Of a stretch of DNA of 64,000 nt, positions 1,076 to 56,672 are shown one piece after another (positions within the stretch are counted from its first letter, which is position 1; each line of letters begins with the position of its first letter). Position numbers and translations under genes: made by a program. The stretch comes from a virus. The DNA lies in the IMG/VR virus record IMGVR_UViG_3300037485_001282, positions 1-64,000 of that record; one strand, written 5' to 3'. Below the pieces are notes generated by a model that had not been told where the DNA came from, did no database searches, and worked only from the letters and a program-made list of their open reading frames with translations.

Positions 1076-1082
1076 ATACACC

Positions 1083-1090
1083 TATTTATA
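1083..1090 (-). promoter_or_regulatory. T4-type late promoter TATAAATA upstream of tnpB-like gene
   Basis: Minus strand reads TATAAATA-GGTGTAT-ATG. Confidence 0.55.
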
Positions 1091-1194
1091 TAAAATACCA
1101 CAAAAAATAAGTTTATATGAAATTTTATTATTTTATACAAAAACGGCATTTGCTCCCGTCATAATTGCTTTCCTTCTTAGTTTCTTGAGAGGGG

Positions 1195-7798: not shown

Positions 7799-8761
7799 TC
7801 AAGTTACTGTAATTAACTTACAGGATCTCAAAGCAGATAGATCTTTACCCCCAGCGTAGCTAATAGCTGATTGAAGATCCTCTTGAATTTCCTTAAGTAA
7901 ATGGGTCATGTCGCCTTTATAGTCCATTAGGATTTTCTTTCCCTCTACTCTTGAATATGTTTTCTTATTATGTTCACTCGCTGATCCGTAATAAACACAT
8001 TTCATATGACCGTCAATTTCAATTTTCTCTGATGAACTCTGGTCATATGAATTAAATAAGGAACCAGCCATCACAAGATCAGCGCCTATAGCAAGAGCAA
8101 CCGAAAGATCACCATGATGTTCTATTCCACCATCTAGGATTATTGGTTTTTTTGCAACTTGTGCTATATCAATTCCACAGGATACCATTCCTCTGTAAAC
8201 CTTTGTCTTTAAACGGGTTATGCAACTTTTCCCCGCGCCGATTCCTGCTTTTGTTGCGTCTGCTCCCCAACTTTCAATAGCAACACATGCTTCTGGAGTA
8301 TTGTAATTCCCAACAGTCAAAAAAGTATTAGGAAAATTGTCTTTAAAATACTTAGTCATGTTCTCTGCTTTAGGCGAATAAGCATACGCAATATCTAAAG
8401 TAGCGTAATGTAACTCTTTTTCCAGTCCAGCGGCTTTAATCTCTCTAAGTTGCTTATAAGTATCTTCATTAACACCTATGGAGATACTTGTGAAGTGACC
8501 ATTTGATCTCATGTAGTCTATGAATTCAATTTGATTTACACCAAATCGATGCATTACGTAGTACCATCCATTATCAGCGAAGAACTTACAAGTTTCCATA
8601 TTGACAACTGCTGGCATATTAGCAGCAACTACAGGAACTTTGAATTTTCTTCCCCCAAAGATAACCGAAGTATCACATTCACTTCTAGAACCTACAATGC
8701 ACTTATTAGGAACTAGATAAACGTCAGAGTAGTTATATTCTCTTTTAATTTGGATTTCCAT
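7799..8761 (-). CDS. guaC: GMP reductase (GuaC type 2, IMPDH/GMPR family)
   Basis: YSDVYLVP, PVVAANM, YVMHRF, SISIGV, GIGAGKSCIT (catalytic Cys), DGGIEHHGD, MAGSLF, YYGSASEHNK, VEGKKIL, DLQSAISYAGG. Confidence 0.88.
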   Translation of the reverse strand: MEIQIKREYNYSDVYLVPNKCIVGSRSECDTSVIFGGRKFKVPVVAANMPAVVNMETCKFFADNGWYYVMHRFGVNQIEFIDYMRSNGHFTSISIGVNEDTYKQLREIKAAGLEKELHYATLDIAYAYSPKAENMTKYFKDNFPNTFLTVGNYNTPEACVAIESWGADATKAGIGAGKSCITRLKTKVYRGMVSCGIDIAQVAKKPIILDGGIEHHGDLSVALAIGADLVMAGSLFNSYDQSSSEKIEIDGHMKCVYYGSASEHNKKTYSRVEGKKILMDYKGDMTHLLKEIQEDLQSAISYAGGKDLSALRSCKLITVT

Positions 8762-8776
8762 TTAAGTTCCTTTTAG

Positions 8777-9397
8777 TTAACAAAGATTCTCAAAGGCACA
8801 ATCGACCATTAGTTCAATTGCTGCTAGTTCTGGAATAGTATATAATGGTTTCTCAAATTGTCTAGATCCGAAAGATACTAACGGGAAATGTTTAGTTTCA
8901 TAAACTCCATATGTCTTAAGGTAGTACAATTCACTTTTAATGTCTTCTTTGTTCGTCGGATGTCTTACTGGATCTGTATATAGCAAATTTGATTTCTTTT
9001 TACATTTTCTATATAACTTAAGTTTCTCTTCGTTACTAAGACCTTTAAGTGGTTTTTTTGTCCACTCTACTTTCCCGCTATGAAATAGTTTCCACAGTGC
9101 AAATGCTTTTATTCTTTGATTGTCAAACCAATGATAGTTTCCATAAACCATTAAATAATGCATTGCTCTAGCTACTTCGTTTTTAATATTGGAAATATAG
9201 TCTTTTTCGGTTTTTTCTTTATTTCGATCATCTAAATAAACTTTTTTAAGATTAACTTGACCACACAAAAAATAATTCCAACTGAATTTTGGTCCATAAG
9301 GATAATAGTTTAGAATATCTAGTTTATGAAAATGTTCATCTACGAGTCTAGAGAACTCTTTAGTAACGTGATTATATTTTTCTGGATCTGGTTTCAT
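8777..9397 (-). CDS. Hypothetical protein
   Basis: 206-aa ORF with AAGGAACT RBS. Confidence 0.7.
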   Translation of the reverse strand: MKPDPEKYNHVTKEFSRLVDEHFHKLDILNYYPYGPKFSWNYFLCGQVNLKKVYLDDRNKEKTEKDYISNIKNEVARAMHYLMVYGNYHWFDNQRIKAFALWKLFHSGKVEWTKKPLKGLSNEEKLKLYRKCKKKSNLLYTDPVRHPTNKEDIKSELYYLKTYGVYETKHFPLVSFGSRQFEKPLYTIPELAAIELMVDCAFENLC

Positions 9398-9437
9398 TTA
9401 AGTTCCTTATAGTAACTCATTAAGAGTTACCATCGTT

Positions 9438-10262
9438 TCATTGAGTTACTATCTTGCGGCGAATCCAGATAGGAATGATACCAAAGAGCCAATAGGTAGA
9501 AACTTGAGTTACTGGTTTAGTTTCTGAAGTGGGACGTTGTATTGCATTTAATTTTGCAGCTACTTCCGCCCACGCTTCTTTTTTATCTTCCGTATATCCT
9601 ATAGCAGCATCTACTTCTTTATTAACCTTTTCCTCAATTTTTTGTCCACGGCAATCATAAAAATCTGGAGTCTCTTTCGCAATACTTTCCTTAAATTCTT
9701 CCGAAAGTCCTCTTTTTGAATTAATATATTTTCTACAGAGGTTAATGTCTCTTTCTATATTAGTAGTTCCTAAAGATGAAATAATGGCACTTCCCTCAAA
9801 CTTAGTAATTGACTTATCAATGGCTTTCTTGTCCGCTTCGGGTAACCTACCGAAAGTCACAGAATCAGTAACTATTGTAGATACATTATTGGAGCTATCA
9901 TATTTAACTGAAACATTTAAATCATTCTTTAATAAACTAATTATCTCTGTTCTATTTGTTTTTTCGTCTAGAAAATTAATCAAAGATGTCATCTTATCTT
10001 CCGCTTCCATGAGATTAAGGGAAGGAGCAGGAATCCAATTTTTAAAAACTGTTCGATTTCCTTTGAGGATTCTTTTTAATGTAGAAAAGATAATAGCTTC
10101 TGAATCGGTTGACACATGCTCTCTTTTCATCAATTTAGTAATAAGATACTTTTCATAGTCACTTAGAGTAAAAGCATAAGCGTACTTAGTCGTAGTTTCT
10201 ACTTTAGACCCTACATTTGGATGTTTTTTCATTTGAGTTCCTTTGGTGATTATTTTAGCCAC
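9438..10262 (-). CDS. Hypothetical protein (alternative start 10232)
   Basis: 274-aa ORF; C-terminal YWLFGIIPIW. Confidence 0.7.
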   Translation of the reverse strand: MAKIITKGTQMKKHPNVGSKVETTTKYAYAFTLSDYEKYLITKLMKREHVSTDSEAIIFSTLKRILKGNRTVFKNWIPAPSLNLMEAEDKMTSLINFLDEKTNRTEIISLLKNDLNVSVKYDSSNNVSTIVTDSVTFGRLPEADKKAIDKSITKFEGSAIISSLGTTNIERDINLCRKYINSKRGLSEEFKESIAKETPDFYDCRGQKIEEKVNKEVDAAIGYTEDKKEAWAEVAAKLNAIQRPTSETKPVTQVSTYWLFGIIPIWIRRKIVTQ

Positions 10263-11058: not shown

Positions 11059-11066
11059 TATAAATA
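11059..11066 (+). promoter_or_regulatory. T4-type late promoter TATAAATA
   Basis: 18 nt upstream of the only plus-strand gene in this region; GAGGA RBS follows. Confidence 0.65.
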
Positions 11067-26847: not shown

Positions 26848-26888
26848 ATTCCGTTATTTATACGAAATGATGATATTTAATAAGAAAA

Positions 26889-38350: not shown

Positions 38351-38358
38351 TATTTATA
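38351..38358 (-). promoter_or_regulatory. T4-type late promoter TATAAATA
   Basis: 24 nt upstream of the gp5-like start. Confidence 0.7.
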
Positions 38359-41590: not shown

Positions 41591-41854
41591 TTATGTTTCC
41601 TTTAATGAATTTATTATAGCATCTATTTTATTTTGTTCTTCTAAAATTCGAACATCATCATCAAGAACGAACCAACCTCTCCAAAAACCATCTGGGGAAA
41701 CACAGAAAATACCTTGCTTCCCATTTGGTGAAATCGAAAGAGCGTTACCCATATTATCATATTCGACTAAAGATAAATTATTTTGATAATAAGAAATTAT
41801 TTTTTTTGCTCTGTCATTGAGACCTATTAAGCTAATCCTATGAAAATTATTCAT
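41591..41854 (-). CDS. Hypothetical protein
   Basis: 87-aa ORF. Confidence 0.6.
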   Translation of the reverse strand: MNNFHRISLIGLNDRAKKIISYYQNNLSLVEYDNMGNALSISPNGKQGIFCVSPDGFWRGWFVLDDDVRILEEQNKIDAIINSLKET

Positions 41855-42621
41855 CAGAAGATGTAACCTGGATTTTTAATTAAAATTTCTTTTCTCGCTT
41901 CGTTTCTTTCATGATTTAGATGATATAAAGGTTTAATCAACCCAGCGTATGTTGGATCAACCCCCATTTGTTTTCGAAATCCAATTTCCGATTTTGTTAC
42001 AAAATGGTCAATTGAATTTACTGGAGTGTCTCTATAACCACCATATTCATAAAAGTTATTTTCTTTTAGCTTTTCTACATTGAAAATCTGAAATCCGCCA
42101 GTTCCTCTAGCTCCAGAAATAATTTTAGTATTAATACTTAATATTTTTTCGTGCCAGTTTTTTATTGGGGAATCTTCGTATATTTCATTATTAACTAACA
42201 TATTTCCATCACTAATTTCCATAGTTCGTCTAATAGCAGCGATGCATTTATTATTTCCTTTTTCTTTCCACTCACATAACAATGGAGTTAAGCTTGAAAA
42301 AAAATCAGGATGAAAAACCTCATCTGAGTCAACAAATAATATAAAATCACAAGAAGCGTTTTTAATATCGTTTGTTCTTGTAAATCCTCTCCTAAAAAAA
42401 GAATCGGAACACCATTCTCTATCATTTATCTTAATTTTATCTTTAAATGTAGATAAGAGTTTTTTTGTTAAATCTATTCCTGGGTCGCTTTTATGATAAT
42501 TCAACGTATAAACAATTGAAGGTAAATTGGTTTTAGTTTGGTCCGCTAAACTGCTTAGTTGCCACCAAGCTCTTCTCTGGTATCTATATTGAAAATTAGC
42601 GATTTCTATAGAAATAGTCAT
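41854..42621 (-). CDS. GT-A fold glycosyltransferase (GT2-like)
   Basis: DFILFVDSDEVFHP DxD motif, GGFQIF, LYHLNH. Confidence 0.75.
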   Translation of the reverse strand: MTISIEIANFQYRYQRRAWWQLSSLADQTKTNLPSIVYTLNYHKSDPGIDLTKKLLSTFKDKIKINDREWCSDSFFRRGFTRTNDIKNASCDFILFVDSDEVFHPDFFSSLTPLLCEWKEKGNNKCIAAIRRTMEISDGNMLVNNEIYEDSPIKNWHEKILSINTKIISGARGTGGFQIFNVEKLKENNFYEYGGYRDTPVNSIDHFVTKSEIGFRKQMGVDPTYAGLIKPLYHLNHERNEARKEILIKNPGYIF

Positions 42622-43334
42622 GCGTTTTCCTTTAGTATGTAATCTTTGAAATCTGTATATACTGGATTTAAAAAGTATTCTAGATTACAATCAATTGAAA
42701 TTCCACTATTTAATCTTAGTAATCTCCATTGAATCTGATCGTCACATATGTTATTTTCTTTATATTGATCTATTAAAATAGTCATTAAGTTTTTAATCTT
42801 TTCTTTTTTCCCAAAAAAGCACCCAGCATTTAAGTGAAAGAAATCTTTGTCTGGTAAAATCTGTTTTTCTTTATCGATAATATATTCCATATTCAGTTTT
42901 TTGAGTTTTTTAAGTTGATTTCCTTTTTCGGATTGAAAAATAATATCATCTTTGATATTTAAAAGTCTAGTTAAATCACCTTGGAGAAATACGTCATAAG
43001 AATCTACACATAATACAAACTCTTCGGCAATTTTATCGTAATTTTCAATAAAACCATGTATTTTTTCCATCCAGTTAAATTCAACGTTTGTTCTGGCGCA
43101 ATTATAATATTTAACTCTATTGTTTATACAAATTTGTTCCAAGACACCGCGTTTTCTTCTCCTTAAATCATTATTATAAGTTACTATTGCTATATTCTTA
43201 GGAACAGTAATTTTAAAGTCATTTAGTCTTTTTTCACAGAAATCCCATAGTCTCCAGTCCCATGATTTGGGTCCACCCGAAAAATGTATCGCTAATGGTT
43301 CCTTTATGGAATCTTTATGATTATATTTTAACAT
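42618..43334 (-). CDS. PLOD/procollagen glycosyltransferase-like GT-A protein
   Basis: FVLCVDSYDVF, IIFQSEK, FHLNAGCFFG, DDQ, IDCNLEYF. Confidence 0.7.
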   Translation of the reverse strand: MLKYNHKDSIKEPLAIHFSGGPKSWDWRLWDFCEKRLNDFKITVPKNIAIVTYNNDLRRRKRGVLEQICINNRVKYYNCARTNVEFNWMEKIHGFIENYDKIAEEFVLCVDSYDVFLQGDLTRLLNIKDDIIFQSEKGNQLKKLKKLNMEYIIDKEKQILPDKDFFHLNAGCFFGKKEKIKNLMTILIDQYKENNICDDQIQWRLLRLNSGISIDCNLEYFLNPVYTDFKDYILKENA

Positions 43335-43336
43335 AA

Positions 43337-44053
43337 TTACACTCTTTCTATTCGTTCCTTAAGATACTTCAATTTACTCTTAACATCCTTCTTAGCACAA
43401 TGATGAATCAATATAGTATCTTTGCCTTCTTCTTTTTGATACTTAGGATAATAAATATACTTAGAATCATAAAGACCAATATCATCTATTCCCAAGTAAA
43501 TCATACTATTCAACGCACTCTGATCATTAAGTGAAAGCAGATCTCTATCTTTTTTTCTGGTATTGTAAAATGTCTTCCAGTTATCTAGAAAATCATAGTT
43601 ACTTTCATTAAACGAAAATACGCCAGAGCAAAATGGCTTTACCCTTTCTGGAATAGTCTCTTCGTAGTTATATAAAGAACCACCATACCATTTATAGTTT
43701 CTTTTATTTAATTCAATTGGAGTTAAGAAAATTAAAGGGTCTTCAGCAACTTCTAGTTCCTTAAATAACCTGTCTATCGACCTAACAGCAATAACATCAG
43801 TATCTAAATATAAGTACCTATCGTAACCAGAAGCAAATTCAAGGATCTTCGCTCTATACATACAAAGATCATATAAGTTGCTAGATGGTTCCTTAAAGAC
43901 AATAGTCTTAGCTCCTTCAAATTTATAATCAATGTCACTCAGAACAACAATGTCCCCACTATAACCAGTCTTCTTTAAACTGGATATAGTGAGGTCAGCA
44001 AATTCCTTGTAAATCTTATTACCAAATACAACTAGGTAAACTAAGGTGCTCAT
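43337..44053 (-). CDS. GT8-like / nucleotide-diphospho-sugar transferase
   Basis: YDRYLYLDTDV, FCSGVF, NDQSALN, LIHH. Confidence 0.75.
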   Translation of the reverse strand: MSTLVYLVVFGNKIYKEFADLTISSLKKTGYSGDIVVLSDIDYKFEGAKTIVFKEPSSNLYDLCMYRAKILEFASGYDRYLYLDTDVIAVRSIDRLFKELEVAEDPLIFLTPIELNKRNYKWYGGSLYNYEETIPERVKPFCSGVFSFNESNYDFLDNWKTFYNTRKKDRDLLSLNDQSALNSMIYLGIDDIGLYDSKYIYYPKYQKEEGKDTILIHHCAKKDVKSKLKYLKERIERV

Positions 44054-44330: not shown

Positions 44331-46535
44331 TTATTTTATCTCACATCCACCACCAGAGCAACTAGCAGCAGCCAAAGTGTTCATATCAAATTTAAAATCT
44401 TCTTCCATAAACAAAGACCAGTCAACGTCTTGATATTCTCGCTTAAGATCTAACCATAGTTTCCAAAGAGAAACGTGCTTAAGTAAATGTGAGCATTTTC
44501 GCAAATCACCATCAACGTATCTAGCTGCAAATTGCTTAAACCGTCTAACCCAATCTTTTTTCTTTTCTTCTTTATTGAAATTTTCTACATCATCATAATA
44601 CTGTTTAAGATCCCCAGCATATTTTATTAATTTGCTTGCGTGTTGTTTGTCTGTGAATCCATTTTTGGCGGGTCTAATCGGTTCTTCTGGTTTATTTAAA
44701 TTTATAATCTGTTGCCCAATATCTAATGCACAGTCGCACGCTGCCCATAAGTTATCACTAAAAGCATCCAATCCATCAACTATAAGACCAGACGCAAAAA
44801 GAGATCCTTCTCCGTATTCAGCGATTAGTTCCTTTTCATTTAAAATATTAGAAAAAGGAGCTTGTGGATAATCTAAATCACCAGAGAACGGCAATAGTGA
44901 AATTCCACCGAACCATTTTTTATTATGATAAATAAACTTTTCAACTTCGTCCCATTCTTCATTTTTTACCGAAATGGTGTTGGATACATTATGACGCAAC
45001 CAAGGTTGAACGCTTCTTGTTGTTGTTCCGTATTCAACCCAGTTTTGTTGAGTTAACATAACTTTTTCTAATAACTCAATCGCGCCAACTTGATTCTTTA
45101 CAATCGCGCCATCTGGCACTTCACACAAGAAACTTATAACTTTATCGTTTCCCGATTTACTCCAAACAGATTTTTCAACCGCTTTAGGATTATGTACCTC
45201 AAAATATTGAAGAGGGGATTCCATAATATTCGCTTGAACGCGCCGCAAATATCTCCTTGAGAAAGAAGGGTGAATTCCATTGGAAACACCTAGGAGACAA
45301 GAAGATGTGCCCTCTGGCTTTATTGCATTTACTCTTGCTGCCGCATTTATTCCCAATAATTTTGCGATCCTTTCGTTGGTTTCTATTATAGTTTTGGCCC
45401 CATTCTGCTGGAAGATTGGATTAAGTGCTATAGTTGGGTTATCCATTATCCCAGTCATAGAACACCCGAGTAACGCCTCTCGTTTATTAATATCTTCAGT
45501 TACTTTTCCAAGATATGGAAATTTATTGTATGACGCTTGTATTGTTCCAACAATAGCCGATGCTTTACACGCAGAGTAAAAATCCTCCTCTGTTTTACAT
45601 TTCTTAACGTTAATGGTAGTTAAATTACAGAATTCCCATCCAGAATTTCCTTCTTCGTCGTAGCCATAAAGGCCAATTTCGCAGCAGTTATGTAGAATTA
45701 GGCCACTGGAGTCAAACGCATGAGCGCCATTTATGGTGCAGTCATAAACGTCTTTTTTTCCAACATATTCAATATTTTCTACTATTGCTGTTTTACTTGT
45801 GCGAAACACTGAATATTCTTCATAATGGGGGTCGTTTTCGGTTTCTTTCTTATACTCGAAATAAGCGTCTGACTTATAAAAAGAATGATCGTGTACCATT
45901 AAAAATTCACCGATAGTAATATGTTTTTGCTCTACCCATTCTGGCTTATTGTTTCGCAAAACAAGTAACTTATGGTTTGATGTTGTTTCGACCGATTTAC
46001 CACATGTGGTTGTGATCTTATACACATCTTTATTTCCAGTATAGAAGAATCCGCTCTCAGTTGATTTAAATTCTTCACCATTAACCAACGCAATGAATTG
46101 GTTTCCGATCAAATCATTAACAGTTTTTATACCAGATGCCGTTAAAATTTCGGTTTCGCCTGGAACACATGGGTTAAACAAGGCTCTGTCGTTATCGGTC
46201 CAAATAAATCCTGGTTCACCAAAATCTTTAGTCGATTTAAATAATTTAGAAAAATCATCTTTAGAAATCTCGCTTCTAACTAGTAACGCGGAGTTATTAG
46301 ATCTTCCTCGTTGGGGGTTTTTTATAAACCAATCTGCCGTTTTCGCTTTAGCCATTTCTTCATCATCTGGTGAAAATAAACATATTACTGCTGAATTATG
46401 TGAAATAGAAGTAAACCCATTAAGTTCATTTTTTGCATTAAAACAATGAACCTCATTTACTTCTATATCATATGTGTTTTCTTCCCCATAACTGGAAACA
46501 CATGTTACTCTTGAAAGTTTAAAGTTACTCTTCAT
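44331..46535 (-). CDS. nrdJ: Ribonucleotide reductase C-terminal part (RTPR/NrdJ-like), carrying the split-intein C-fragment and a mini-intein
   Basis: SAVICLF, QRGRSNNS, GEPGF, NP|CCEI, FCNLTTIN, LLGCSMTG, IKPEGTSS, HNVSNT, GISLLP, YPQAPF, C-terminal CSGGGCEI. No YY radical-transfer pair is seen, favouring class II, but class is not certain. Confidence 0.9.
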   Translation of the reverse strand: MKSNFKLSRVTCVSSYGEENTYDIEVNEVHCFNAKNELNGFTSISHNSAVICLFSPDDEEMAKAKTADWFIKNPQRGRSNNSALLVRSEISKDDFSKLFKSTKDFGEPGFIWTDNDRALFNPCVPGETEILTASGIKTVNDLIGNQFIALVNGEEFKSTESGFFYTGNKDVYKITTTCGKSVETTSNHKLLVLRNNKPEWVEQKHITIGEFLMVHDHSFYKSDAYFEYKKETENDPHYEEYSVFRTSKTAIVENIEYVGKKDVYDCTINGAHAFDSSGLILHNCCEIGLYGYDEEGNSGWEFCNLTTINVKKCKTEEDFYSACKASAIVGTIQASYNKFPYLGKVTEDINKREALLGCSMTGIMDNPTIALNPIFQQNGAKTIIETNERIAKLLGINAAARVNAIKPEGTSSCLLGVSNGIHPSFSRRYLRRVQANIMESPLQYFEVHNPKAVEKSVWSKSGNDKVISFLCEVPDGAIVKNQVGAIELLEKVMLTQQNWVEYGTTTRSVQPWLRHNVSNTISVKNEEWDEVEKFIYHNKKWFGGISLLPFSGDLDYPQAPFSNILNEKELIAEYGEGSLFASGLIVDGLDAFSDNLWAACDCALDIGQQIINLNKPEEPIRPAKNGFTDKQHASKLIKYAGDLKQYYDDVENFNKEEKKKDWVRRFKQFAARYVDGDLRKCSHLLKHVSLWKLWLDLKREYQDVDWSLFMEEDFKFDMNTLAAASCSGGGCEIK
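45687..46169 (-). mobile_element. Contiguous mini-intein (161 aa) at the catalytic NP|CxEI site
   Basis: Starts CVPGETEILT, block B ETTSNHKLL, block F VYDCTI, ends ILHN followed by Cys+1; no endonuclease domain. Confidence 0.93.
46395..46535 (-). mobile_element. Split intein C-fragment (IntC, 47 aa)
   Basis: MKSNFKLSRV...TYDIEVNEVHCFNA...SISHN then Ser+1 (SAVIC); own AAGGAG RBS at 46545-46550. Confidence 0.92.
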
Positions 46536-47766
46536 TTATTTTATCTCCTTTGATAAATTTAATCGCATTGAATAGCGTTAGTGTTGGATATTTAATAAAG
46601 TCATTTTCCCATATAGTTAATATTTCATAGCCAGATTTAATTGCGAGAAGATATTTTAAATGATCTTTTTTCCAAATATCCTCGGCTCTTACATCATTAT
46701 ACCTCATTCTTATAATTGAATCTGGTCCGTGTTTAATTGGATTGGCATGCCAGTAGTCCCCATTAAACTCTATTAATTTGTCTTCGTAGTTGAAATCATA
46801 AGATAAAGTAATGTCTCTACTCGCTGAGTTCTTCTGGATAAGATCAATTTCATTTTCGCCATATTTACATTTTTCTACATCCAATCCACCCGTTGTTATT
46901 AATTTTTCGAAGAAATCGGTTGATATTTTGGATACGTTTTTCCCAAAGGATCTAGAATTTCTAGTTTGATTCCGTTTCATTTCTTCATATAGCAGCTTAC
47001 CTTCGATTTCCCCATATTTATTAGTAAAATAATCCAAGTTCATTTTACCAGAAGCCGAACCAAAAAACCAAGAATTTCCATATTTTTTATTATTTGTTTC
47101 TTTTGTTTTTTCGGTGGGACAGACGCCAGTTAAATTTTCTAATCCGTATTTTTCTATTCTGGTTTTTGTTGCTTTTTCTAGAAACTCTGGGCACTGCATA
47201 GTATGTTCATGTCCATATTTTTCTTTTAACGTTGCTCTACTTTTTTTCTTAATATCTTCGTTTTGAAATACATTCTCGAATCCATATTTTTCAATAAATT
47301 TTTTCTTTATTTTTTCTTTAACATATTCTTGTTGGGCTGGGTTAATGTAACCATATTTTTCTAATAACTTCTCTTTTTGTCTTTTAACGATTTCTGGGTG
47401 TTTCCTGCACTCATGGCTACATGCGTATATTCTATCAGGATGGTTTTTAAGGTAACATGGTTTAATGTGAACAAAATTATTGCAATCTGGATTCGCGCAT
47501 TTTCTATCTTCGCCTGGGAATTTTTTTGCGTTTTTTTCTTTTATTTTTAATTTGGATACGGGATTTTGTGATGGATATTCATAGCCATGTTTTTTAATAA
47601 AATTTTCTTTTTTTATCTTCAATACTAGTGGATTTTCCGCACATTCTTTGCAACAAGTATGCACTTTATCTGGGTGAGATAATATCTCCCACTTTCTCAC
47701 GTAAACCATATTTCCACACTCTGGGTTTCCGCATTTCTTGTATTCTCCTGTTCGATGTCCTGCCAT
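46525..47766 (-). CDS. Free-standing homing endonuclease with Vsr-like/DUF559 nuclease domain and DNA-binding repeats
   Basis: Two CxNPxC...CxxEC zinc modules, multiple EKYG repeats, C-terminal YDF..KLIEFNGDYWHANP...D..K..GYEILTIWEND. Confidence 0.85.
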   Translation of the reverse strand: MAGHRTGEYKKCGNPECGNMVYVRKWEILSHPDKVHTCCKECAENPLVLKIKKENFIKKHGYEYPSQNPVSKLKIKEKNAKKFPGEDRKCANPDCNNFVHIKPCYLKNHPDRIYACSHECRKHPEIVKRQKEKLLEKYGYINPAQQEYVKEKIKKKFIEKYGFENVFQNEDIKKKSRATLKEKYGHEHTMQCPEFLEKATKTRIEKYGLENLTGVCPTEKTKETNNKKYGNSWFFGSASGKMNLDYFTNKYGEIEGKLLYEEMKRNQTRNSRSFGKNVSKISTDFFEKLITTGGLDVEKCKYGENEIDLIQKNSASRDITLSYDFNYEDKLIEFNGDYWHANPIKHGPDSIIRMRYNDVRAEDIWKKDHLKYLLAIKSGYEILTIWENDFIKYPTLTLFNAIKFIKGDKINEE

Positions 47767-47770: not shown

Positions 47771-47800
47771 TGTCTCCTAATATGTATTTATAGGAGGACA
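47771..47800 (-). promoter_or_regulatory. RBS-sequestering hairpin containing late promoter TATAAATA (47785-47792)
   Basis: mRNA sense TGTCCTCCTA-TAAATACATAT-TAGGAGACA-AAAC-ATG. Confidence 0.8.
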
Positions 47801-47823: not shown

Positions 47824-48840
47824 TTAAGCCTCACCAATCAATGAATAATCTTGTGTTAGATCTTTTGCCATTACCCACTCCTCTGACTCGGTTATGTGAT
47901 TAAAAGCTAACCACTTGTGATTTGGAGTAGAAACATGAAACCCGTCCTCTGTATCTATTTTTAGTAATTTCTGAACCCCATTATTATATGTATTATTAAC
48001 AGTATATTCGTTCCCCATGTACTGTATAGTATCTCCTTTTTTTACTTCAGTGATGTTTTTATATATTCCATTTGCCATCTGAACAGAATAGAAAGAAGGT
48101 AAACACCGTCTAACCCCACCAGATATGACCCCATCGCTGGCGTGCATAATAATATCATATGCTTCAATTGGCTTTAATTTTTCTCTATCTTCTTTAAGAA
48201 CGTTTTCAAATATACCTTCAATTAACTGGAGACTTTTTCTTAGCGCATCTGGGCCAGGGGCTTTGCCACCCCAACTTACAGTAGATCCCGCTGGTCTAAT
48301 TTTAGAAAAATCAAAAGAGATAGTCTTTTCGAAATATTCTGGAAATGGTTGGTCTTTGGTGAAGTAAGAAGAAACTAAAGCACCTAAAGAATCGGCCCAG
48401 CCTTCTATACTATCTTCAACAACAAATACTACCTTTTCATCTGATCGTTTAGCAATGGGGGGCAATTTATCTACGTCTTTGTGTTGAAAACTAGTTCCCG
48501 CGCCACATCCAGCTAGAAGTAAAAACAGCAACTCTTGAAAGAATCTAGGACGATCACAATACGAAGCGCAACAATTAAAAATTCTCTCCTGTTTCTTTAA
48601 AATTGGATCTCCACCGAACTGCAAGGCTCTTTGGGAGCCTAAGATTCTTTTTTTAAGCATCATATCTTTTGCAAAGTAAAAATCTTCTTTTATAGAATCT
48701 AATTTAGCTCCTAAGTGTTTCTCATGCATATCGAAGACTCTATTGATTTGCTCTTCCCAAGTTTCTCTTCGTTTCTTTTCTGGTAAATATTTGGAGTATT
48801 TTGAGATGCGGGTATATTCTGCTAGAGCCTTGATGGACAT
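47824..48840 (-). CDS. nrdJ: Ribonucleotide reductase N-terminal part (245 aa) fused to split-intein N-fragment
   Basis: RRETWEE, GSQRALQFGG, FNC, LLLAGCGAG, EDSIEGWAD, DFSKIRPAG, APGP, VISGGVRR followed by intein. Confidence 0.9.
   Translation of the reverse strand: MSIKALAEYTRISKYSKYLPEKKRRETWEEQINRVFDMHEKHLGAKLDSIKEDFYFAKDMMLKKRILGSQRALQFGGDPILKKQERIFNCCASYCDRPRFFQELLFLLLAGCGAGTSFQHKDVDKLPPIAKRSDEKVVFVVEDSIEGWADSLGALVSSYFTKDQPFPEYFEKTISFDFSKIRPAGSTVSWGGKAPGPDALRKSLQLIEGIFENVLKEDREKLKPIEAYDIIMHASDGVISGGVRRCLPSFYSVQMANGIYKNITEVKKGDTIQYMGNEYTVNNTYNNGVQKLLKIDTEDGFHVSTPNHKWLAFNHITESEEWVMAKDLTQDYSLIGEA
47827..48105 (-). mobile_element. Split intein N-fragment (IntN, 93 aa)
   Basis: Cys1 block A CLPSFYSVQMANG..KNITEVKKGD, block B STPNHKWL, WVMAKDLTQDYSL, then stop. 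Confidence 0.92.
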
Positions 48841-49223: not shown

Positions 49224-52200
49224 TCATTCCGCCGATTTTCGCCACTTCTCGTTGCCTTTTTCTTTTTCGCTTTTAGTTGCTTCGATTACTTTGGCTAACC
49301 ATATGTCGTTAGTAGGAGAAGTTTCAAAAGTATCTACTAGAGTTTGATTTTTATTCCAAACATCTATAAAGATATTTTCGCCTTTTTTAACTTGAAAGGA
49401 ATATTTTGCTAACATTTTAATAATGTTAATTTGCTCGGAGGTTAATGGTTGTCCTATAGTCATTCCATTAAGTTCCTCTGACCATCTTACATTACCAGTT
49501 CCAATACAGTATTCGATGTCACAGTCGTATCCTTGGCTTCTTGCGTAACTCATGTGAGATTGTCTGCCAATTTCAATAGCTTCACCGTCTCTACCAATAA
49601 ATCCTCTTGGAAAGTCAAAAGTATCTTCGAAGTCATCATCGTTTAATGAAAAGTTCTCAGAAACGGCTTTTCTATTAACTTTAGATGCTTGTATTACTCT
49701 TGATAACCAAATTTCGTTGGTAGGAGAAGAATTAAGACAAATAGCAGCACCATCATCATTCCACACCTCAACGATAATATTTTCGCCACGTTTTACAATC
49801 GGGGAATATTTACAGATTTTTTTAATAACCTCTATTTGGTCTCTAGTCATTGGCTGCCCAATGTCTATTGAATTTGTTATTTCTGACCAGCGGATATTAC
49901 CTGTCTTTCTAACATAATCAATAGCATCGTTATAACCTTGATCCGCAGCAAATTCATTATGAGACAAATTAGTTATGTTTATCCTATTTCCTTCTCTATC
50001 TATAAAACAATCGGGCAAATCAAAAGTTTCTGTCTCATCATCATGTACCGAGAAATCTTCATTTAGACTCTTGGTATTTAACCATATATTATCCATATCC
50101 ATAATGAACATAGATTTACCAGAATAATCTTTATTTTCCGCGACTTCTACTGAGTCGTAGCCTTTTTCTTTAATTCGCTTAACGACTTCTGGTTTGTCCA
50201 ACATATTCCAATCGATGAGATTTTCGGAGAAAATCGCCATAAGCCATTCGCCACAATCCTCAGATTTCTCATCGTTAATGACTTCCTTGTAATTTATACC
50301 ATTTTCGACTTCGATATACCTTTTACCGTTCTTTTCAACTATGGCTGGTTCGAAAATGTAAAGACAATCGTTATAAACTTTAACGCACTCAGTTGAATCC
50401 AACGTAGAGGCTGGGATCATGTCTGGGCTTAAAAATGGCTTGTAAGATCTCAAATAAAACGAATTGACGTACCGCCCATACCCTCTCGCGTCCTTCGCTG
50501 ACTCAGAAAAGAAAATACCACTAGAGGTGACTTCATACTCGTCAAATAGGACCGATCTTATTGATTTCTTTCCAATCTCAAATTTATTAAACTTTTCATT
50601 TGTGCCATGATAAAATACTCTCGGTTTCCCAGAATCATCAACTAATTTAGAACCACGGAACCAATCTTCAAAGTCGGAATTATCGTTTCTGGATACTTCT
50701 TCATTTAAATAATTAAAAGACTCCCCAAGTATCTTCTCTAAAGGAACTTTATAGATACTTTTAAATACTTCTATTAAATAGTCGATACCTTCTGAGTTAC
50801 CTTTAAGTATCTTTGAGTATCTTTTAAGTTCATTACTAGTATCTTTGAGTAGCTTTATGTTACTTTTGTATTTTATGGGATCTGAAGTTTCTTTAGTTAA
50901 TAGGATAGCGTCTTTAAGTTCTATTAGTTTATTTCTAGAACCTCTTAGTAACTCTATAGCTTCTTTTTTGACATTAGAGAAGTCAGCGGTTTCTTTAACT
51001 AGGGACTTTAGAGTCTCTGTGATTATCTGTGAAGGATCTTGAATAGAAGGATCCTTAGAAGATACTTGGTAGAGACTTTGAGTGACTGAAGTATCTGAAT
51101 TAACGTTGAGATGAAGTAGCTTTGATTTAATTTGTGCCTTTAAGTTACTAATAATATCTACGGTTTCGTTTTTCAATTTACTATTAGTTTCTTTTTCGTT
51201 CACATAATTTTCTGAATAGGCTTTAAATTCTATTACTTTTCCTTCTTTTGCTTTGGCTCTAATGATTAGACCTTCTATAGCGTCTGGGGAGAAGTTACTT
51301 TTTACGTTATTAGAATGAGTATCTAAAGCTTCTTGGATTTTCTTTTTAGATTCTGTAAGTAGCTCTACTACTCTTCGTTTTTCTGGAGTTAATTTAGAGT
51401 TTAATAGTTCCTTTAATTTAGTTATTCCATTTTCTGATTTTAGGTAAGTATCTAATTGTTTAAAGTTAAAATCAATTGAGAGTGGTTCAGCTATAGAAGC
51501 ATGAGTAGTGTCTGAAAATACTCTCCATTCTTTTGAGTCTGCGTCTTGGACATTAGTGATGAGTTTATTTAAGGTTGTTCTATTTGGCTGAGTCCAGTTT
51601 TTTCCATCCAAGACTTGTGCATTGAAAACCATGAAGCTACCTTGATTTCCTACAATTTTCCTATCGTAAGAAACTTCCTTAACTTTAATAGGAGCTTCAA
51701 TATCATCTGCATTAGGATTTACTATTAGTTCAGCTTCAAATTTAATAGGATCGTCTAGTTCCTTTGAAAGAGAATTTAAGACGGAGATTACTAGCTTATT
51801 CTCTAAAAGGAACTTAAAGGTATTTTTGAAAGTTTCATTATCTGAAAATTTAGTTTCGTAATTATCTTTAGTTACTTCACCAGAGTCTCTAGATTCCATA
51901 AAGAAGTCTTTATTTTTATTAAGACCAAATTGGCAATATAAAGCGTCGATCTTTTCAACTATATTAACTTCGGTATTGTCTGCAACTAAGTTTCCTTTAG
52001 TTATATGAGGATAGATTATTTCTAAAAGATCAATGTAGTCACTAGTGGATAATTCTGTTGGATCTCCATCTAGTTTAGGGATTCTTTTAGTTTTCTTTTC
52101 TTCATTATATATTAACGAGTTTGCTTGTTCGGTTAGATTTGATATTTCTTTATCAATAGGGATAACAGGGAAATCTTGATCTAATATTTTATTAATACCG

Positions 52201-53315
52201 ATTTTTTCCCCTATCTTCTTGAGAGCGGCTCTATATTCCTCTTCTGAAAATTGACTACCTAATTTACTTAAAGTTCTCTTCGAGTTAATTAAATATTCCC
52301 ATATTTTTTTCTTTTTATCGTCATCAAAGCTACTATTAATATACTTAAGAGTCTTAGTTAAACTATAAAGATCATCTTCGGTTGCTGTCTTTCCTAAAAG
52401 AATCTTAGCGATATTCTCAGGATACAATAGTGACAATTTGTTAATAGGTGATTCTAGTAAATCAAATGACTTAGATGTTTCTTGACCTTTAATTTTAACT
52501 ATGCCTTTTAACATCAATCCATTTATAGCAGATGATAATACTATTTTCTTATATTTACTAAAAACTGGAGTAACATCTAAGGAACTAGAAGTTACTTGTT
52601 CGCCACTTTCTAGTGACTTTAAGTTTACTTCATTTCCTTTTTTGGATAAACAGATAAACTCTTTTCCTTTAAATGTTACTCGCATTCCTTTTCTAATAGA
52701 AGTATTATTGGCGATGTCACTGTAGTTTTTTCTAAAATTTATTTGAACTTGATTCATTAACTTATCATAATCCATTGATGTTATATCTGCTACTTCCTTA
52801 ACGAAAGTTTCGGTAGATATTAGTCTGCATAATGCGTTGTGAACATCTATTAGAAAAATAGAGTTTATATCATTAACTTCATCGTCTATTGATAAAGATT
52901 TCCAATATTTTAGATATTTTTTAATATCTTCATCTACAATAAGTAAGAAGTTAATCTTTACGCCACTTATAGTTACAAAAATATCAGATGTAGTGGAAGT
53001 AACTATTTCCCCACTTTTTGCGATTTCTTCTTTTATTTTACTAAATGCTTCTTTTGGATCTAATTTATCGTCTAAATATAAATCAACATCTAAGTTTTTA
53101 ATTCCTTGGGTAATCTTTTTAGTCTCTGCTGTATTTGTATTTTCGTCTTCTAGATCCTCGACTGCTTTTTTTATGCTTTTCTTAAAAAAACGATAAGCTA
53201 ACTTAGTTGCGCCAATATCAAATAATGGTTCCTTTGATATTAGGTTCTTTTCTTTTAAGTTCTCTATTACTTTGTTAATGAAATTAAACGCAACTATTGT
53301 TTTATATTCGGACAT
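49224..53315 (-). CDS. Large polyvalent protein: ligase-like nucleotidyltransferase region, ADP-ribosyltransferase-like domain, duplicated C-terminal domain
   Basis: VEKIDA/FEAEL/IEGLII/FK motifs; DWFRGSKLVDDSGKPRVFYHGT..F..F..GIFFS..A.GY..FYL..P..GYDSV; two ~130-aa tandem repeats. Confidence 0.7.
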   Translation of the reverse strand: MSEYKTIVAFNFINKVIENLKEKNLISKEPLFDIGATKLAYRFFKKSIKKAVEDLEDENTNTAETKKITQGIKNLDVDLYLDDKLDPKEAFSKIKEEIAKSGEIVTSTTSDIFVTISGVKINFLLIVDEDIKKYLKYWKSLSIDDEVNDINSIFLIDVHNALCRLISTETFVKEVADITSMDYDKLMNQVQINFRKNYSDIANNTSIRKGMRVTFKGKEFICLSKKGNEVNLKSLESGEQVTSSSLDVTPVFSKYKKIVLSSAINGLMLKGIVKIKGQETSKSFDLLESPINKLSLLYPENIAKILLGKTATEDDLYSLTKTLKYINSSFDDDKKKKIWEYLINSKRTLSKLGSQFSEEEYRAALKKIGEKIGINKILDQDFPVIPIDKEISNLTEQANSLIYNEEKKTKRIPKLDGDPTELSTSDYIDLLEIIYPHITKGNLVADNTEVNIVEKIDALYCQFGLNKNKDFFMESRDSGEVTKDNYETKFSDNETFKNTFKFLLENKLVISVLNSLSKELDDPIKFEAELIVNPNADDIEAPIKVKEVSYDRKIVGNQGSFMVFNAQVLDGKNWTQPNRTTLNKLITNVQDADSKEWRVFSDTTHASIAEPLSIDFNFKQLDTYLKSENGITKLKELLNSKLTPEKRRVVELLTESKKKIQEALDTHSNNVKSNFSPDAIEGLIIRAKAKEGKVIEFKAYSENYVNEKETNSKLKNETVDIISNLKAQIKSKLLHLNVNSDTSVTQSLYQVSSKDPSIQDPSQIITETLKSLVKETADFSNVKKEAIELLRGSRNKLIELKDAILLTKETSDPIKYKSNIKLLKDTSNELKRYSKILKGNSEGIDYLIEVFKSIYKVPLEKILGESFNYLNEEVSRNDNSDFEDWFRGSKLVDDSGKPRVFYHGTNEKFNKFEIGKKSIRSVLFDEYEVTSSGIFFSESAKDARGYGRYVNSFYLRSYKPFLSPDMIPASTLDSTECVKVYNDCLYIFEPAIVEKNGKRYIEVENGINYKEVINDEKSEDCGEWLMAIFSENLIDWNMLDKPEVVKRIKEKGYDSVEVAENKDYSGKSMFIMDMDNIWLNTKSLNEDFSVHDDETETFDLPDCFIDREGNRINITNLSHNEFAADQGYNDAIDYVRKTGNIRWSEITNSIDIGQPMTRDQIEVIKKICKYSPIVKRGENIIVEVWNDDGAAICLNSSPTNEIWLSRVIQASKVNRKAVSENFSLNDDDFEDTFDFPRGFIGRDGEAIEIGRQSHMSYARSQGYDCDIEYCIGTGNVRWSEELNGMTIGQPLTSEQINIIKMLAKYSFQVKKGENIFIDVWNKNQTLVDTFETSPTNDIWLAKVIEATKSEKEKGNEKWRKSAE

Positions 53316-54030: not shown

Positions 54031-54038
54031 TATTTATA
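54031..54038 (-). promoter_or_regulatory. T4-type late promoter TATAAATA
   Basis: 30 nt upstream of the start at 54000. Confidence 0.65.
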
Positions 54039-54142: not shown

Positions 54143-54877
54143 ATGCCATTAAACGTAGGAATCGGGTTGTGTTCATATAAAAGACCCGATTTAGCAAATA
54201 AGATATGCTCGGAGATTATATCTACGGTAGATAACTCCAAATACAATATACAGACCGTTTGTAGTGTGGATGATTTGAATATTTCTGGGTATGAAACAGT
54301 TAAGTCGCGGTTTAACTTAATATATGGGGAAAATAGTGGAATATCAGTTAATAAGAATAGACTTTTAAAGTTCCTAAAAGGAAACGATGTTATTTTTATA
54401 GTTGAAGATGATATTAGCTTTATTAAGCCTGGGTGGATTGACATTTATCTAAATGCTATACAAGTAACTGGAATACAACACTTTAACTATATAGTATCTG
54501 ATTATAGAAAGTTTATTACGAAAATTTTAAAATTTAATGAAGAAGTTTCCCTCGGTATAACTGGCCCATATGTCAATGGTGTTCTAATGGTTATGACGAA
54601 AAAATGTATAGATACTGTTGGTGGGTTTGATATGCGGTTTAAAAAGTATGGGTATGAGCACGCTGAATTTACTAGAAGATGTTCATTAAATAACCTTTAT
54701 CCACCACAGCATGTGCATTTGATGTCTGCTTCTGATTATATTGGGTGGGAACACTCTGATTCGGTTATAATTAGTTCCGAGAAACAAGAATTTATAGACT
54801 ATAACGCCAAAATCTTCCACACTATTGTTAATAAAAACTTTATTCCTTATGAAACGGTTGGGTACATAAATGCATGA
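54143..54877 (+). CDS. Glycosyltransferase family 2
   Basis: IGLCSYKRPD, VDD, NSGISVNKN, FIVEDD, VGGFDMRFKKYGYEH. Confidence 0.85.
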   Translation: MPLNVGIGLCSYKRPDLANKICSEIISTVDNSKYNIQTVCSVDDLNISGYETVKSRFNLIYGENSGISVNKNRLLKFLKGNDVIFIVEDDISFIKPGWIDIYLNAIQVTGIQHFNYIVSDYRKFITKILKFNEEVSLGITGPYVNGVLMVMTKKCIDTVGGFDMRFKKYGYEHAEFTRRCSLNNLYPPQHVHLMSASDYIGWEHSDSVIISSEKQEFIDYNAKIFHTIVNKNFIPYETVGYINA

Positions 54878-55646
54878 TATAAGAGATGTTACATTCAATA
54901 TTCCAGTGAAAATAGATCAGCCCGATAGATTACGAAATTTATCTATAGTGATGGGGTATTTAAATAAATATTTTAAAACCAACATAATACTATCAGAAAT
55001 GGATGAATCTAGTAAATTAAATGATTTATTTAAAGATATATCGTTTAAGCACGTATTCATGAAAACAAGTAGTCCATATTTTCATCGAACCATGATGCTT
55101 AACTATATGGCAAAGGTATCAACAACACCAATTATAGTTAATTATGACTGTGATATTTTATTAACTCCAGATCAAATAGTTGAGGCTGTGAATAAAATAA
55201 GGTTCTTTGGAGAAGAAATGGTTTTTCCATATGATGGGAATTTCTATGACGTACAGCCTCAATATATAGATCTAATTAAAAACAACTTAGCTATAGAAAC
55301 TATATCCACTAGAACAATGTGTAAAAATTTACGACCAGAAGGAGATTCTGTTGGTGGGGTTATCTTTTGGAAAAAAAGTAAATTTATGGAAATAGGTATG
55401 GAAAATGAAAATTTCATATCATGGGGGTTCGAGGATACCGAAAGATACGAAAGAGCGAAGAAACTAAATGTAAAAATATACAGAGGAAACGGTGGGTTAA
55501 TTCACTTACATCACAACTCAAGTCTTAACAGCGCCAACGCATCTCATCCGTTTTATCTTCAAAACGAAAACGAATACAAAAAAGTTAATCAAATGAGTCC
55601 AGACACATTACTAAATTACGTTAAAACATGGGCTTGGGCAAAATAA
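54870..55646 (+). CDS. Galactosyltransferase-like GT-A protein (GT2/GT7 C-domain)
   Basis: DVTFNIPV, FHRTMMLN, NYDCDI, SVGG, GMENENFISWGFEDTER, LIHLHH. Confidence 0.85.
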   Translation: MHDIRDVTFNIPVKIDQPDRLRNLSIVMGYLNKYFKTNIILSEMDESSKLNDLFKDISFKHVFMKTSSPYFHRTMMLNYMAKVSTTPIIVNYDCDILLTPDQIVEAVNKIRFFGEEMVFPYDGNFYDVQPQYIDLIKNNLAIETISTRTMCKNLRPEGDSVGGVIFWKKSKFMEIGMENENFISWGFEDTERYERAKKLNVKIYRGNGGLIHLHHNSSLNSANASHPFYLQNENEYKKVNQMSPDTLLNYVKTWAWAK

Positions 55647-56672
55647 ATGTCAATATACAAAAATATATTAAAAAGACCAATAAAAATATTAATGCATGGA
55701 ATTAGAAAGATAGTTTTACCTGGACAAAAAATAGAAGGAGGGGAAGAACTGAGAAGTTATGCTGGATTGATGAAAATAGAATCAAAAAATAATGAAGAAA
55801 GAAATAACCTAATATCGAATGCGTTTGAAAAATATTTTGGGGATCTAAAAATAGAAACACATACTAGAATAGTAACTAATGAGGAAATTATGGAAAAAGC
55901 GGATTTAACCGACGTAACATTCAATATACCTATATCTATAGAGTCAGAAGACCGAAAAAACAACCTAACTCTTATATTAGATTATATTGGGAAATATTTT
56001 AACACAAATGTAATTATTTGTGAGAGTTCCGAAAAAATGAATATTAAGGATTTTTGGAAACCAGAATGGTCTTCATTTGTTAGAATTCTCTTTGCGGAAA
56101 ATAAAACTCAATTTTTCTATAAAACAAAGCTACTAAACGAATTAGCAAAAATGTCAAAGACCGAGATAATTGTTAGCTATGATAGCGATGTTATTTTAAG
56201 CCCGAGTTTATATATACAAGCAGCAAACGCAATTAGAAACAAAGAATATGATTTCTGCTACCCATTCAATAAACCACTTAAGCATATAAAAAAGGAAACT
56301 TTCCCATTAATTAGAGACACTCTAGATGTATCGATTATCGACCCACACACGGAAATAACTCATCCAGGGGTTCCTCCAGGTGGATGCTTCTTTATGAATA
56401 GAGAAAAATTTATAATGGCTGGAATGGAAAACGAAAATATGATTTCCTGGGGACCAGAAGATCAAGAGCGTTTATACAGAGTTCGAAAGTTAGGATATAC
56501 TGTTGGGGCGTTAAATGGATCTCTTTATCATCTAGATCACCATATCACACCAAATAGTTTCTATACAAACCCGATTTATCATAAAAACGTGGATGAGTTT
56601 AATAAAATACAGAAAATGTCATTAACCGATCTAGAAGATTATATTAAAACTTTTTATTGGATCAAAAAATGA
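55647..56672 (+). CDS. Galactosyltransferase-like GT-A protein, paralogue of 54870..55646 with N-terminal extension
   Basis: DVTFNIPI, SYDSDV, PGG, GMENENMISWGPEDQER, LYHLDH. Confidence 0.85.
   Translation: MSIYKNILKRPIKILMHGIRKIVLPGQKIEGGEELRSYAGLMKIESKNNEERNNLISNAFEKYFGDLKIETHTRIVTNEEIMEKADLTDVTFNIPISIESEDRKNNLTLILDYIGKYFNTNVIICESSEKMNIKDFWKPEWSSFVRILFAENKTQFFYKTKLLNELAKMSKTEIIVSYDSDVILSPSLYIQAANAIRNKEYDFCYPFNKPLKHIKKETFPLIRDTLDVSIIDPHTEITHPGVPPGGCFFMNREKFIMAGMENENMISWGPEDQERLYRVRKLGYTVGALNGSLYHLDHHITPNSFYTNPIYHKNVDEFNKIQKMSLTDLEDYIKTFYWIKK

Follow-up and report, generated by a model that had tools for sequence, protein, structure and literature searches.

The gene at positions 46525..47766 (minus strand) of the IMG/VR virus record IMGVR_UViG_3300037485_001282 most probably specifies an EDxHD (Vsr-like) homing endonuclease of the free-standing kind. 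The halves of a split intein stand on either side of the gene, fracturing the class II ribonucleotide reductase (RNR) gene nrdJ at the codons for GGVRR|SA, and the enzyme would act by the mechanism proposed below; we put the probability of this reading at about 0.8. The DNA analysed, called the window here, is the first 64 kb of this 143.7-kb record, the completeness of which is estimated at 79%, and it carries myovirus-type baseplate genes and an NAD-dependent ligase. The analysis establishes the anatomy of the endonuclease gene, the fold and family of its product, its genomic context and its recurrence at the same site. The gene is a further instance of the published fractured-gene pattern with a Vsr-like homing endonuclease.

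The fractured nrdJ gene

Three successive open reading frames (ORFs) occupy the minus strand at this locus, at 47824..48840 (338 aa), 46525..47766 (413 aa, the endonuclease) and 44331..46535 (734 aa). The endonuclease frame had been proposed in an earlier note on this DNA, and is borne out here as an open frame of 413 aa. The 338-aa and 734-aa ORFs are the halves of a class II RNR, matching PHROG 367 at 2.6e-43 and 1.2e-43 respectively, with the Pfam RNR-II insertion domain in the N-half (9.4e-06) and Ribonuc_red_lgC in the C-half. As is characteristic of a fractured gene, one enzyme gene is therefore carried in two same-strand ORFs bearing split-intein halves (IntN and IntC; Table 1). The split can be placed at GGVRR|SA because of the extein and intein edges and because a contiguous 801-aa NrdJ on the viral contig L003, 57% identical, runs uninterrupted through the junction as ...SGGIRRSACIALF... 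(GGIRRSAC). From these sequences, trans-splicing of IntN and IntC is predicted to rejoin the NrdJ halves. The two 15-mers from which the earlier note reconstructed an empty site are indeed the true edges of the exteins, one covering the final 15 nt of the N-extein and the other the initial 15 nt of the C-extein.

The remaining features of a fractured gene are also present, with the endonuclease between the halves, an overlap at its 3′ end and a 5′ hairpin holding the late-promoter motif TATAAATA. The overlap with the IntC start is 11 nt long and the IntC ribosome-binding site (RBS) lies inside endonuclease codons, both as first described; the AAGGAG of this RBS is 9 nt upstream of the IntC ATG. 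Upstream of the endonuclease ATG is a 57-nt spacer, in which the RBS AGGAG is paired with CUCCU in the predicted fold. The Vsr-like family was first predicted from fractured-gene loci by Dassa et al. (2009; NAR 37:2560, PMC2677866), and those loci resemble the present one in their phage setting, in a 3′ overlap with the IntC start (6-69 bp in 15 loci), in a hairpin with TATAAATA in the 5′ untranslated region (UTR) and in having nrdJ among the host genes. Of 16 endonuclease 5′ UTRs, 15 were reported to contain hairpins, and the late-promoter motif was present in ten of these (Dassa et al., 2009). The NrdJ-1/2 inteins of that study are inserted one residue after the thiyl-radical site, whereas the split intein of the window is at GGVRR|SA.

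The same site is occupied in other loci. Metagenomes were scanned with the pattern EFNGDYW together with alignment A2 (16 sequences), by which 456 relatives of the endonuclease were confirmed and the best 80 kept; a scan of viral contigs with the protein gave a single distant locus, L001. In three of the metagenome loci (L005, L038 and L055), GGxRR|SA holds the same split intein and a related endonuclease, with 30-34% identity in the six-sequence alignment A4. The junctions in L005 read ...SGGVRR|CLPSYYSVQM... (IntN-bearing ORF 52% identical) and ...SVSHN|SATIALF (IntC 56% identical), and its endonuclease, 34% identical in A4, contains a single zinc module, the overlap being 8 nt. In L038 and L055 the reductase is more distant, the junctions read ...TGGGRR|CLP[AS]TYS... 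and ...SISHN|SAHI..., and the endonucleases are 30% identical in A4. In the window, L005, L038 and L055 alike, the gene thus stands beside a self-splicing element at a conserved host-gene site, as is typical of the EDxHD family. A quick tree of 72 nuclease domains pairs the window with L005 (Shimodaira-Hasegawa-like approximate likelihood ratio test, 96) and L038 with L055 (100). The four same-site rows require 2 label changes on this tree compared with 3.9 when labels are shuffled (0 of 500 shuffles as low), in a type of test that near-copies favour.

A second, contiguous mini-intein of 161 aa, which has no endonuclease domain, is found in the C-half at 45687-46169 (minus strand), directly before the thiyl-radical Cys (FNP|CVPGETEIL...LILHN|CCEIGL; Pfam Intein_splicing, 3.4e-13). 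It is missing from both L003 (FNPCSEI) and L005 (VNPCAEV). On L003, another gene at 7987-10086 (plus strand) that is open at its 3′ end contains an intein-like insert starting from ...TLDGG|CLTLDTKVCLLDG..., with an HNH-type motif further on.

The Vsr-like nuclease domain

The whole protein was modelled with AlphaFold2 (AF2) from the 36-sequence alignment A1, giving a mean predicted local distance difference test score (pLDDT) of 78.8 overall and about 95 for residues 277-410. A Vsr-like fold had been anticipated from the sequence, and the model has one. Structural comparison with VIA matched model residues ~263-410 to the Vsr-DNA complex 1cw0_A (Z 11.1, 125 residues aligned, root mean square deviation (rmsd) 5.3), to I-Bth0305I (3r3p_A; Z 9.8, 96 of 97 residues aligned, rmsd 3.9) and to 1vsr (Z 9.6, 110 residues aligned, rmsd 3.5). 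FASTKD/RAP-type Vsr-like domains came next at Z ~9, and other PD-(D/E)xK nucleases reached Z 7 at most. Foldseek likewise placed 1vsr first (probability 0.97) and 3r3p fifth and sixth (0.85-0.93), at E-values of 0.07-0.19 which are weak because the query was the whole multi-domain model.

The EFNGDYWH motif singled out in the earlier note is at residues 333-340, within this C-terminal domain. D324, E333, D337, H340 and D368, which include the catalytic D/E/H/D set, are invariant in both A2 and A4, and the stretch around D368 aligns with ERDRRD...VWEC of Vsr in the A2 profile. Judged by spacing and motif, these residues would include the equivalents of D196 and H213 of I-Bth0305I. The protein matches PHROG 3339, 'homing endonuclease', at 1.6e-16, and tblastn matches include Aeromonas phage genes annotated as putative VSR endonuclease. 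A whole-protein sequence search against PDB chains gave nothing significant. Relatives are numerous, as an exhaustive search returned 14,332 cluster representatives at E ≤ 0.001 (4,357 at 1e-10 and 80 at 1e-30). A word-indexed search gave 384 at E ≤ 0.001, of which 120 were listed, and 77 of these 120 have an E-x-N-G-x-x-W-H-type motif. One relative, P0001, comes from another sample and is 92% identical over its full length of 413 aa, with no indels.

The EDxHD family was named by Taylor et al. (2011; NAR 39:9705, PMC3239194), whose I-Bth0305I shares with the window protein a C-terminal Vsr-like domain, the Asp/Glu/His/Asp set and a bipartite build with an N-terminal DNA-binding region. It differs in that it belongs to a group I intron of recA, has N-terminal motifs of NUMOD/helix-turn-helix (HTH) type and is 266 aa long, compared with 413 aa here (Taylor et al., 2011). 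Escherichia coli Vsr (1vsr, 1cw0) has the same core fold, the same Asp-His-Asp active-site pattern and an aromatic pair before the His (YWH in the window), but it is small, stands alone and works in repair, nicking DNA at T:G mismatches. In contrast, the window endonuclease is encoded inside a fractured gene, has an N-terminal arm of 276 aa and shows an additional conserved Glu (E333). A Vsr repair enzyme proper was rejected as an identity for this 413-aa protein on account of its arm and its position between reductase halves, the solved Vsr chains being 134-155 residues long.

Table 1. Positions of the endonuclease, its parts and the surrounding nrdJ and split-intein features in the window
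Feature	Position	Strand	Description
nrdJ N-extein	48106..48840	-	Residues 1-245 of the 338-aa ORF; C-terminal end ...ISGGVRR; PHROG 367, Pfam
IntN, 93 aa	47827..48105	-	Starts CLPSFYSV (Cys1); TPNH resembles block B; stop codon 47824-47826
Endonuclease 5′ UTR hairpin	47771..47800	-	Predicted from sequence and RNA fold; loop TATAAATA 47785-47792; RBS AGGAG in 3′ arm, 47774-47778
Module 1 (residues 1-78)	47533..47766	-	Cys4 zinc ribbon (C12, C17, C38, C42) and one KHG unit; lineage-specific duplicate
Module 2 (residues 79-156)	47299..47532	-	Cys4 zinc ribbon (C90, C95, C116, C120) and first canonical KYG unit
KYG repeat array (residues 124-260)	46987..47397	-	Four canonical 23-aa units and two degenerate units; Pfam DUF7487
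EDxHD / Vsr-like nuclease domain (residues 277-413)	46528..46938	-	D324, E333, D337, H340, D368, E387; stop codon 46525-46527
Overlap/coupling region	46525..46550	-	AAGGAG 46545-46550 in endonuclease K-G-D codons; IntC ATG 46533-46535; endonuclease stop 46525-46527
IntC, 47 aa	46395..46535	-	Ends ...SISHN, followed by +1 Ser of the C-extein (SAVICLF)
nrdJ C-extein	44331..46394	-	Pfam Ribonuc_red_lgC; holds the mini-intein 45687-46169

The zinc-ribbon and KYG arm

The arm is the sole part of the endonuclease that is not covered by the published pattern. Its two related Cys4 modules and roughly seven spaced K[YH]G repeats, both noticed earlier, are confirmed. A gap-free alignment of residues 1-78 with residues 79-156 shows 40% identity over 72 aa (E 1e-20), and the cysteines of both modules (C12, C17, C38/C39 and C42; C90, C95, C116 and C120) follow C-x4-C-x20-C-x3-C. 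C90, N92, P93, C95, C116 and C120 are invariant in all six A4 sequences. The array holds seven K[YH]G copies, with Y or H at residues 60, 138, 161, 184, 207, 229 and 251, and hence spacings of 78 (the duplication), 23, 23, 23, 22 and 22; the remaining two copies (302 and 346) are inside the nuclease domain and outside the array. Against these nine copies, 10,000 shuffles of the protein gave a mean of 0.32 and a maximum of 4, with none reaching 9.

Pfam DUF7487 (PF24308) matches residues 122-210 at 59.8 bits, above its gathering cut-off of 27, and no other Pfam family matches the 413-aa protein at E ≤ 0.1. Successive YG motifs in the 120 listed homologues are 23 aa apart in 507 cases, with 46 (24 cases) and 72 (23 cases) as the next most frequent spacings, and the unit derived from homologues is approximately E-I-K-E-K-I-K-K-T-N-L-E-K-Y-G-V-E-N-P-x-Q-S-E. 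In AF2 models each unit forms one 15-residue helix and a loop (H124-138, H147-161, H170-184 and H193-207). When the arm was folded alone (residues 1-275) the pLDDT was 80.9 and the predicted template modelling score (pTM) 0.39, so that the arm is predicted with confidence locally but not in its shape as a whole. A profile of the zinc modules (A5) gave weak zinc-ribbon matches only (eS31, E 0.048; TrhO, E 0.43) and no Pfam family below E 0.05, and the modules are therefore labelled Cys4 zinc ribbons with no family assigned.

Module 1 is a recent addition. Among the six members of the A4 clade it is present only in the window and in P0001, the other four beginning at module 2, and among the best 150 matches of the exhaustive search P0001 alone has a best matched stretch that starts from query residue 1. 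The duplication is therefore considered a young, lineage-specific extension of the arm. The DUF7487 proteins of phages and giant viruses, a family with no described function, share the KYG region and its 23-aa period with the window endonuclease, which differs from them in this duplicated zinc-ribbon-plus-KYG unit, otherwise seen in P0001 only within these two sets.

The arm is most simply interpreted as DNA-binding, by analogy with I-Bth0305I, since it is basic, extended and nuclease-associated and takes the place of the NUMOD/HTH region. Residues 1-276 have a net charge of +22 (isoelectric point, pI, 9.4), compared with -5 (pI 5.3) for the nuclease domain. The arm also travels with different cutters. 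The clusters among its structural neighbours in the Atlas include one of 377 members with DUF559, one of 59 with HNH (85% of members) and one of 67 with Mom in 25%, and among the 36 aligned homologues of A1 there is an MTES_1575 match in 12 and a DUF559 match in 6. BFVD contains 24 look-alikes of the arm at E ≤ 0.001, from phages, Klosneuvirus, Marseillevirus and an iridovirus, with names describing endonuclease-like, zinc-ribbon-containing or DUF7487 proteins.

Alternatively, the arm may not read DNA at all, and may instead bind RNA (e.g. its own mRNA, in autoregulation), act as a spacer or promote oligomerisation, leaving all recognition to the nuclease domain. The only solved look-alike of a zinc module would fit such a role, being the zinc-bearing C-terminal part of the tRNA-binding protein TrhO (9j5o_A), which module 2 weakly resembles (Foldseek probability 0.85, 45 columns, 36% identity, E 0.97; VIA Z 2.6, neither significant); a Foldseek search of the arm against the PDB gave no match at E ≤ 0.001, the array itself has no structural match, and the specificity of I-Bth0305I comes mostly from its nuclease dimer (Taylor et al., 2011). 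However, the arm is strongly basic, is joined to several unrelated DNA nuclease domains and stands where I-Bth0305I has its DNA-binding NUMOD/HTH region, and we regard a non-DNA role as very unlikely.

As a DNA-binding arm it is a different solution from that of the prototype, as DUF7487 was not found at E ≤ 0.01 in the whole record of phage 0305phi8-36, the source of I-Bth0305I. A NUMOD-type arm was rejected, there being no match to the NUMOD1/3/4 Pfam profiles (E ≤ 0.1); to our knowledge there is no Pfam model for NUMOD2. I-TevI of T4 is comparable in that it places a zinc finger and small helical modules one after another along DNA. The N-terminal modules given by Dassa et al. (2009) are NUMOD-3 repeats in two proteins, and in the sections of that paper considered here zinc is mentioned for Vsr only and there is no description of a zinc-ribbon/KYG arm. 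A literature search found no publication on DUF7487, nor on KYG repeats in homing endonucleases.

A more specific and distinctly speculative idea, to which we give long odds, is that KYG units are a natural modular DNA-reading repeat, in which every helix-loop unit would be in contact with a short and predictable run of bases, the length of the array and the order of its units would set the target, and the array would be re-used with Vsr-like, HNH and MTES_1575 cutters. If this were true, the duplicated zinc-ribbon-plus-KYG unit would represent a recent extension of the recognised site, and the array would offer a compact new scaffold for designed nucleases.

Proposed homing, expression and persistence

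In the proposed mechanism the basic arm, with its two Cys4 zinc ribbons and about six helix-loop KYG units of ~23 aa, would lie along the DNA flanking the target, contributing affinity together with a degree of specificity. The C-terminal Vsr-like domain, which is acidic and probably dimeric like I-Bth0305I, would cut an intein-less nrdJ allele in a co-infecting relative, close to the GGVRR|SA codons. Recombinational repair off the occupied allele would copy the endonuclease gene and the split intein together, and the phage's own genome would be protected by the insertion, which parts the two halves of the site. Expression would be confined to late infection, with the RBS paired in the hairpin on read-through transcripts, and with TATAAATA in the loop starting transcripts that lack the 5′ arm. 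Both the RBS and the start codon of the IntC-NrdJ C-half are carried by the endonuclease 3′ end, and precise deletion of the endonuclease gene alone would therefore be expected to cripple an essential-type enzyme. We infer cleavage, target, dimerisation, arm-DNA binding and timing, with cleavage, protection, co-conversion and dimerisation modelled on the family of Taylor et al. (2011) and on homing theory.

Late expression of this type has been described for I-TevI and mobE, where read-through transcripts hide the RBS and late transcripts starting inside the hairpin free it (Edgell et al., 2010; PMC2988022). The mobE gene, in nrdA of Aeromonas phage Aeh1, also splits a reductase gene, and mobE and I-TevI share with the window endonuclease a late promoter in or next to an RBS-sequestering hairpin and host signals embedded in the endonuclease gene; their catalytic domains, however, are HNH and GIY-YIG rather than Vsr-like (Edgell et al., 2010). 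Aeh1 also differs in that no intein is needed for its nrdA halves to come together (Crona et al., 2011; PMC3045599). In the window, ten of the 11 copies of TATAAATA are on the gene-rich strand and five are ≤ 31 nt upstream of an ORF start, at 11059-11066 (plus strand) and at 26855-26862, 38351-38358, 47785-47792 and 54031-54038 (minus strand). The sequence and placing of these five suggest T4-type late promoters in this phage.

Free-standing endonucleases of T4, namely Seg and Mob, act in marker exclusion. The window endonuclease could similarly cut nrdJ or nearby DNA of competing phages, with or without the intein, so that flanking markers are preferentially inherited. Its setting is suitable for such a role, given that free-standing endonucleases of T4-type phages are used in this way and that the window combines myovirus-type baseplate genes with TATAAATA close upstream of five ORF starts. 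I-Bth0305I moreover tolerates many substitutions in its site (Taylor et al., 2011). Nevertheless, the same endonuclease lineage and split intein recur at one codon junction in diverged reductases, as site-linked homing predicts, and although the two models are mutually compatible, we think marker exclusion unlikely to be the explanation here.

The embedded IntC signals had led the earlier note to argue that the endonuclease is hard to delete. This idea is reasonable and already published, as the argument that the endonuclease supplies a downstream start and so resists deletion is in the discussion of Dassa et al. (2009), and promoters embedded in an endonuclease gene have been described as favouring its retention (Edgell et al., 2010). 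A survey of overlaps among relatives is consistent with it. The survey covers 78 of the 80 loci kept from the metagenome scan, L028 and L030 being left out as their endonuclease ORF was not located by the script. The downstream ORF is on the same strand and overlapping in 47 loci, on the same strand after a gap of 0-15 nt in 18 and further away in 3, on the opposite strand in 7 and absent in 3, with overlap counts that are inflated because the ORF caller takes the first possible start.

Costly loss also raises the possibility that the endonuclease is domesticated or decaying, with an intact frame and lost homing, and is kept for the IntC RBS and start at its 3′ end and for the IntN stop and termination context in its 5′ region. 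The overlap and embedded RBS would indeed penalise loss, the endonuclease is present in a single copy in the 143.7-kb record, and no closely related empty allele was found in the scans described below. Furthermore, the GC content of the insertion is 31.7%, compared with 32.3% for the window, which on this interpretation indicates that the insertion is not recent; a compositional island was rejected on the same grounds, as the GC content of the gene equals that of the window. Against domestication, relatives that are only 30-34% identical all keep the catalytic D/E/H/D residues and the zinc ligands unchanged, P0001 remains full length and free of indels in another sample, and the gene retains its own RBS, hairpin and late-promoter motif. 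A mere spacer would not need 413 conserved codons, and we therefore judge this explanation quite improbable.

The neighbours of the relatives are also those expected of a homing endonuclease. Pfam searches of 126 same-strand flanking ORFs in the 78 loci placed a flank in one of nine families in 47 loci, namely terminase large subunit (16), DnaB-type helicase (11), DNA polymerase B (6), clamp loader (3), SbcC-like (3), RNR (3), RecA (2), RNA polymerase (2) and Pol III alpha (1), and an intein/Hint match on a flank was found in 19 loci. These genes are classic targets of phage homing endonucleases and of the fractured genes of Dassa et al. (2009). Two individual loci are also of note. In L006, at 3177-4298 (plus strand), the relative is in two ORFs 60 nt apart, a DUF7487 part of 147 aa and a nuclease part of 205 aa, and may be a frameshifted or decaying endonuclease gene. 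In L082, at 515-1129 (plus strand), a related endonuclease gene shares 8 nt with a gene matching Pfam Tad3, a Thoeris inhibitor (5.9e-26), and so adjoins an anti-defence gene instead of interrupting a replication gene.

Several results weigh against a Vsr-like homing endonuclease with the properties proposed. For the family assignment, the matches of the A2 profile to Vsr and 3r3p are not significant (E ~0.5), and it is fold, motifs and context that support the family link, no significant sequence match to a solved Vsr or I-Bth0305I having been found. The arm has no significant structural match, the best VIA Z being 3.3 among 48,161 PDB representative chains. The N-terminal arm of I-Bth0305I contacts DNA mostly non-specifically and its specificity comes mainly from the nuclease-domain dimer (Taylor et al., 2011), which argues against strictly repeat-coded recognition by the KYG array. 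No activity data were found for this endonuclease or for any DUF7487 protein. For homing at GGVRR|SA, the four same-site endonucleases form two pairs and no single supported clade in the quick tree, and no closely related empty nrdJ allele was found in scans that excluded the window's own or near records, which gives no sign of recent homing. The sole intein-less allele, that of L003, matches 18 of the 30 nt on one side of the site and 16 of the 30 nt on the other, its protein being the 57% identical NrdJ described above. For the expression signals, an 81-nt stretch with the hairpin is no more stable than its shuffles (z -0.32), and TATAAATA is unenriched in the window (11 found compared with 17.3 expected), for which reason its position rather than its count was used. 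Of 71 relatives, only 5 have the motif in the 60 nt preceding the endonuclease gene, which makes it a feature of some phage lineages and not of the endonuclease family. Lastly, the ORF caller behind the overlap survey picks the first ATG, GTG or TTG after a stop and tends to lengthen downstream ORFs.

Other genes around the reductase include a 1363-aa ORF upstream of it at 49224-53315 (minus strand), the C-terminal end of which consists of two tandem module copies of ~120 aa each, as judged by eye (...NIRWSEITNSIDIGQPMT...GENIIVEVWN... and ...NVRWSEELNGMTIGQPLT...GENIFIDVWN...). Its sole family match is PHROG 21376, which has no function assigned there. Immediately downstream of the reductase are three ORFs of 238-255 aa (41854-44053, minus strand) with no PHROG match, and glycosyltransferase-type genes are found at 54-57 kb (54143-56672, plus strand; PHROG 2456, 1721 and 15655).

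With this locus, GGxRR|SA in nrdJ joins the known split-intein sites and brings an endonuclease lineage of its own, and the split intein may interest collectors of orthogonal split inteins. Few nuclease-associated modules are as common in phage and giant-virus proteins as the zinc ribbon and KYG (DUF7487) arm, and one footprinting or co-structure study of such an arm would annotate thousands of proteins.

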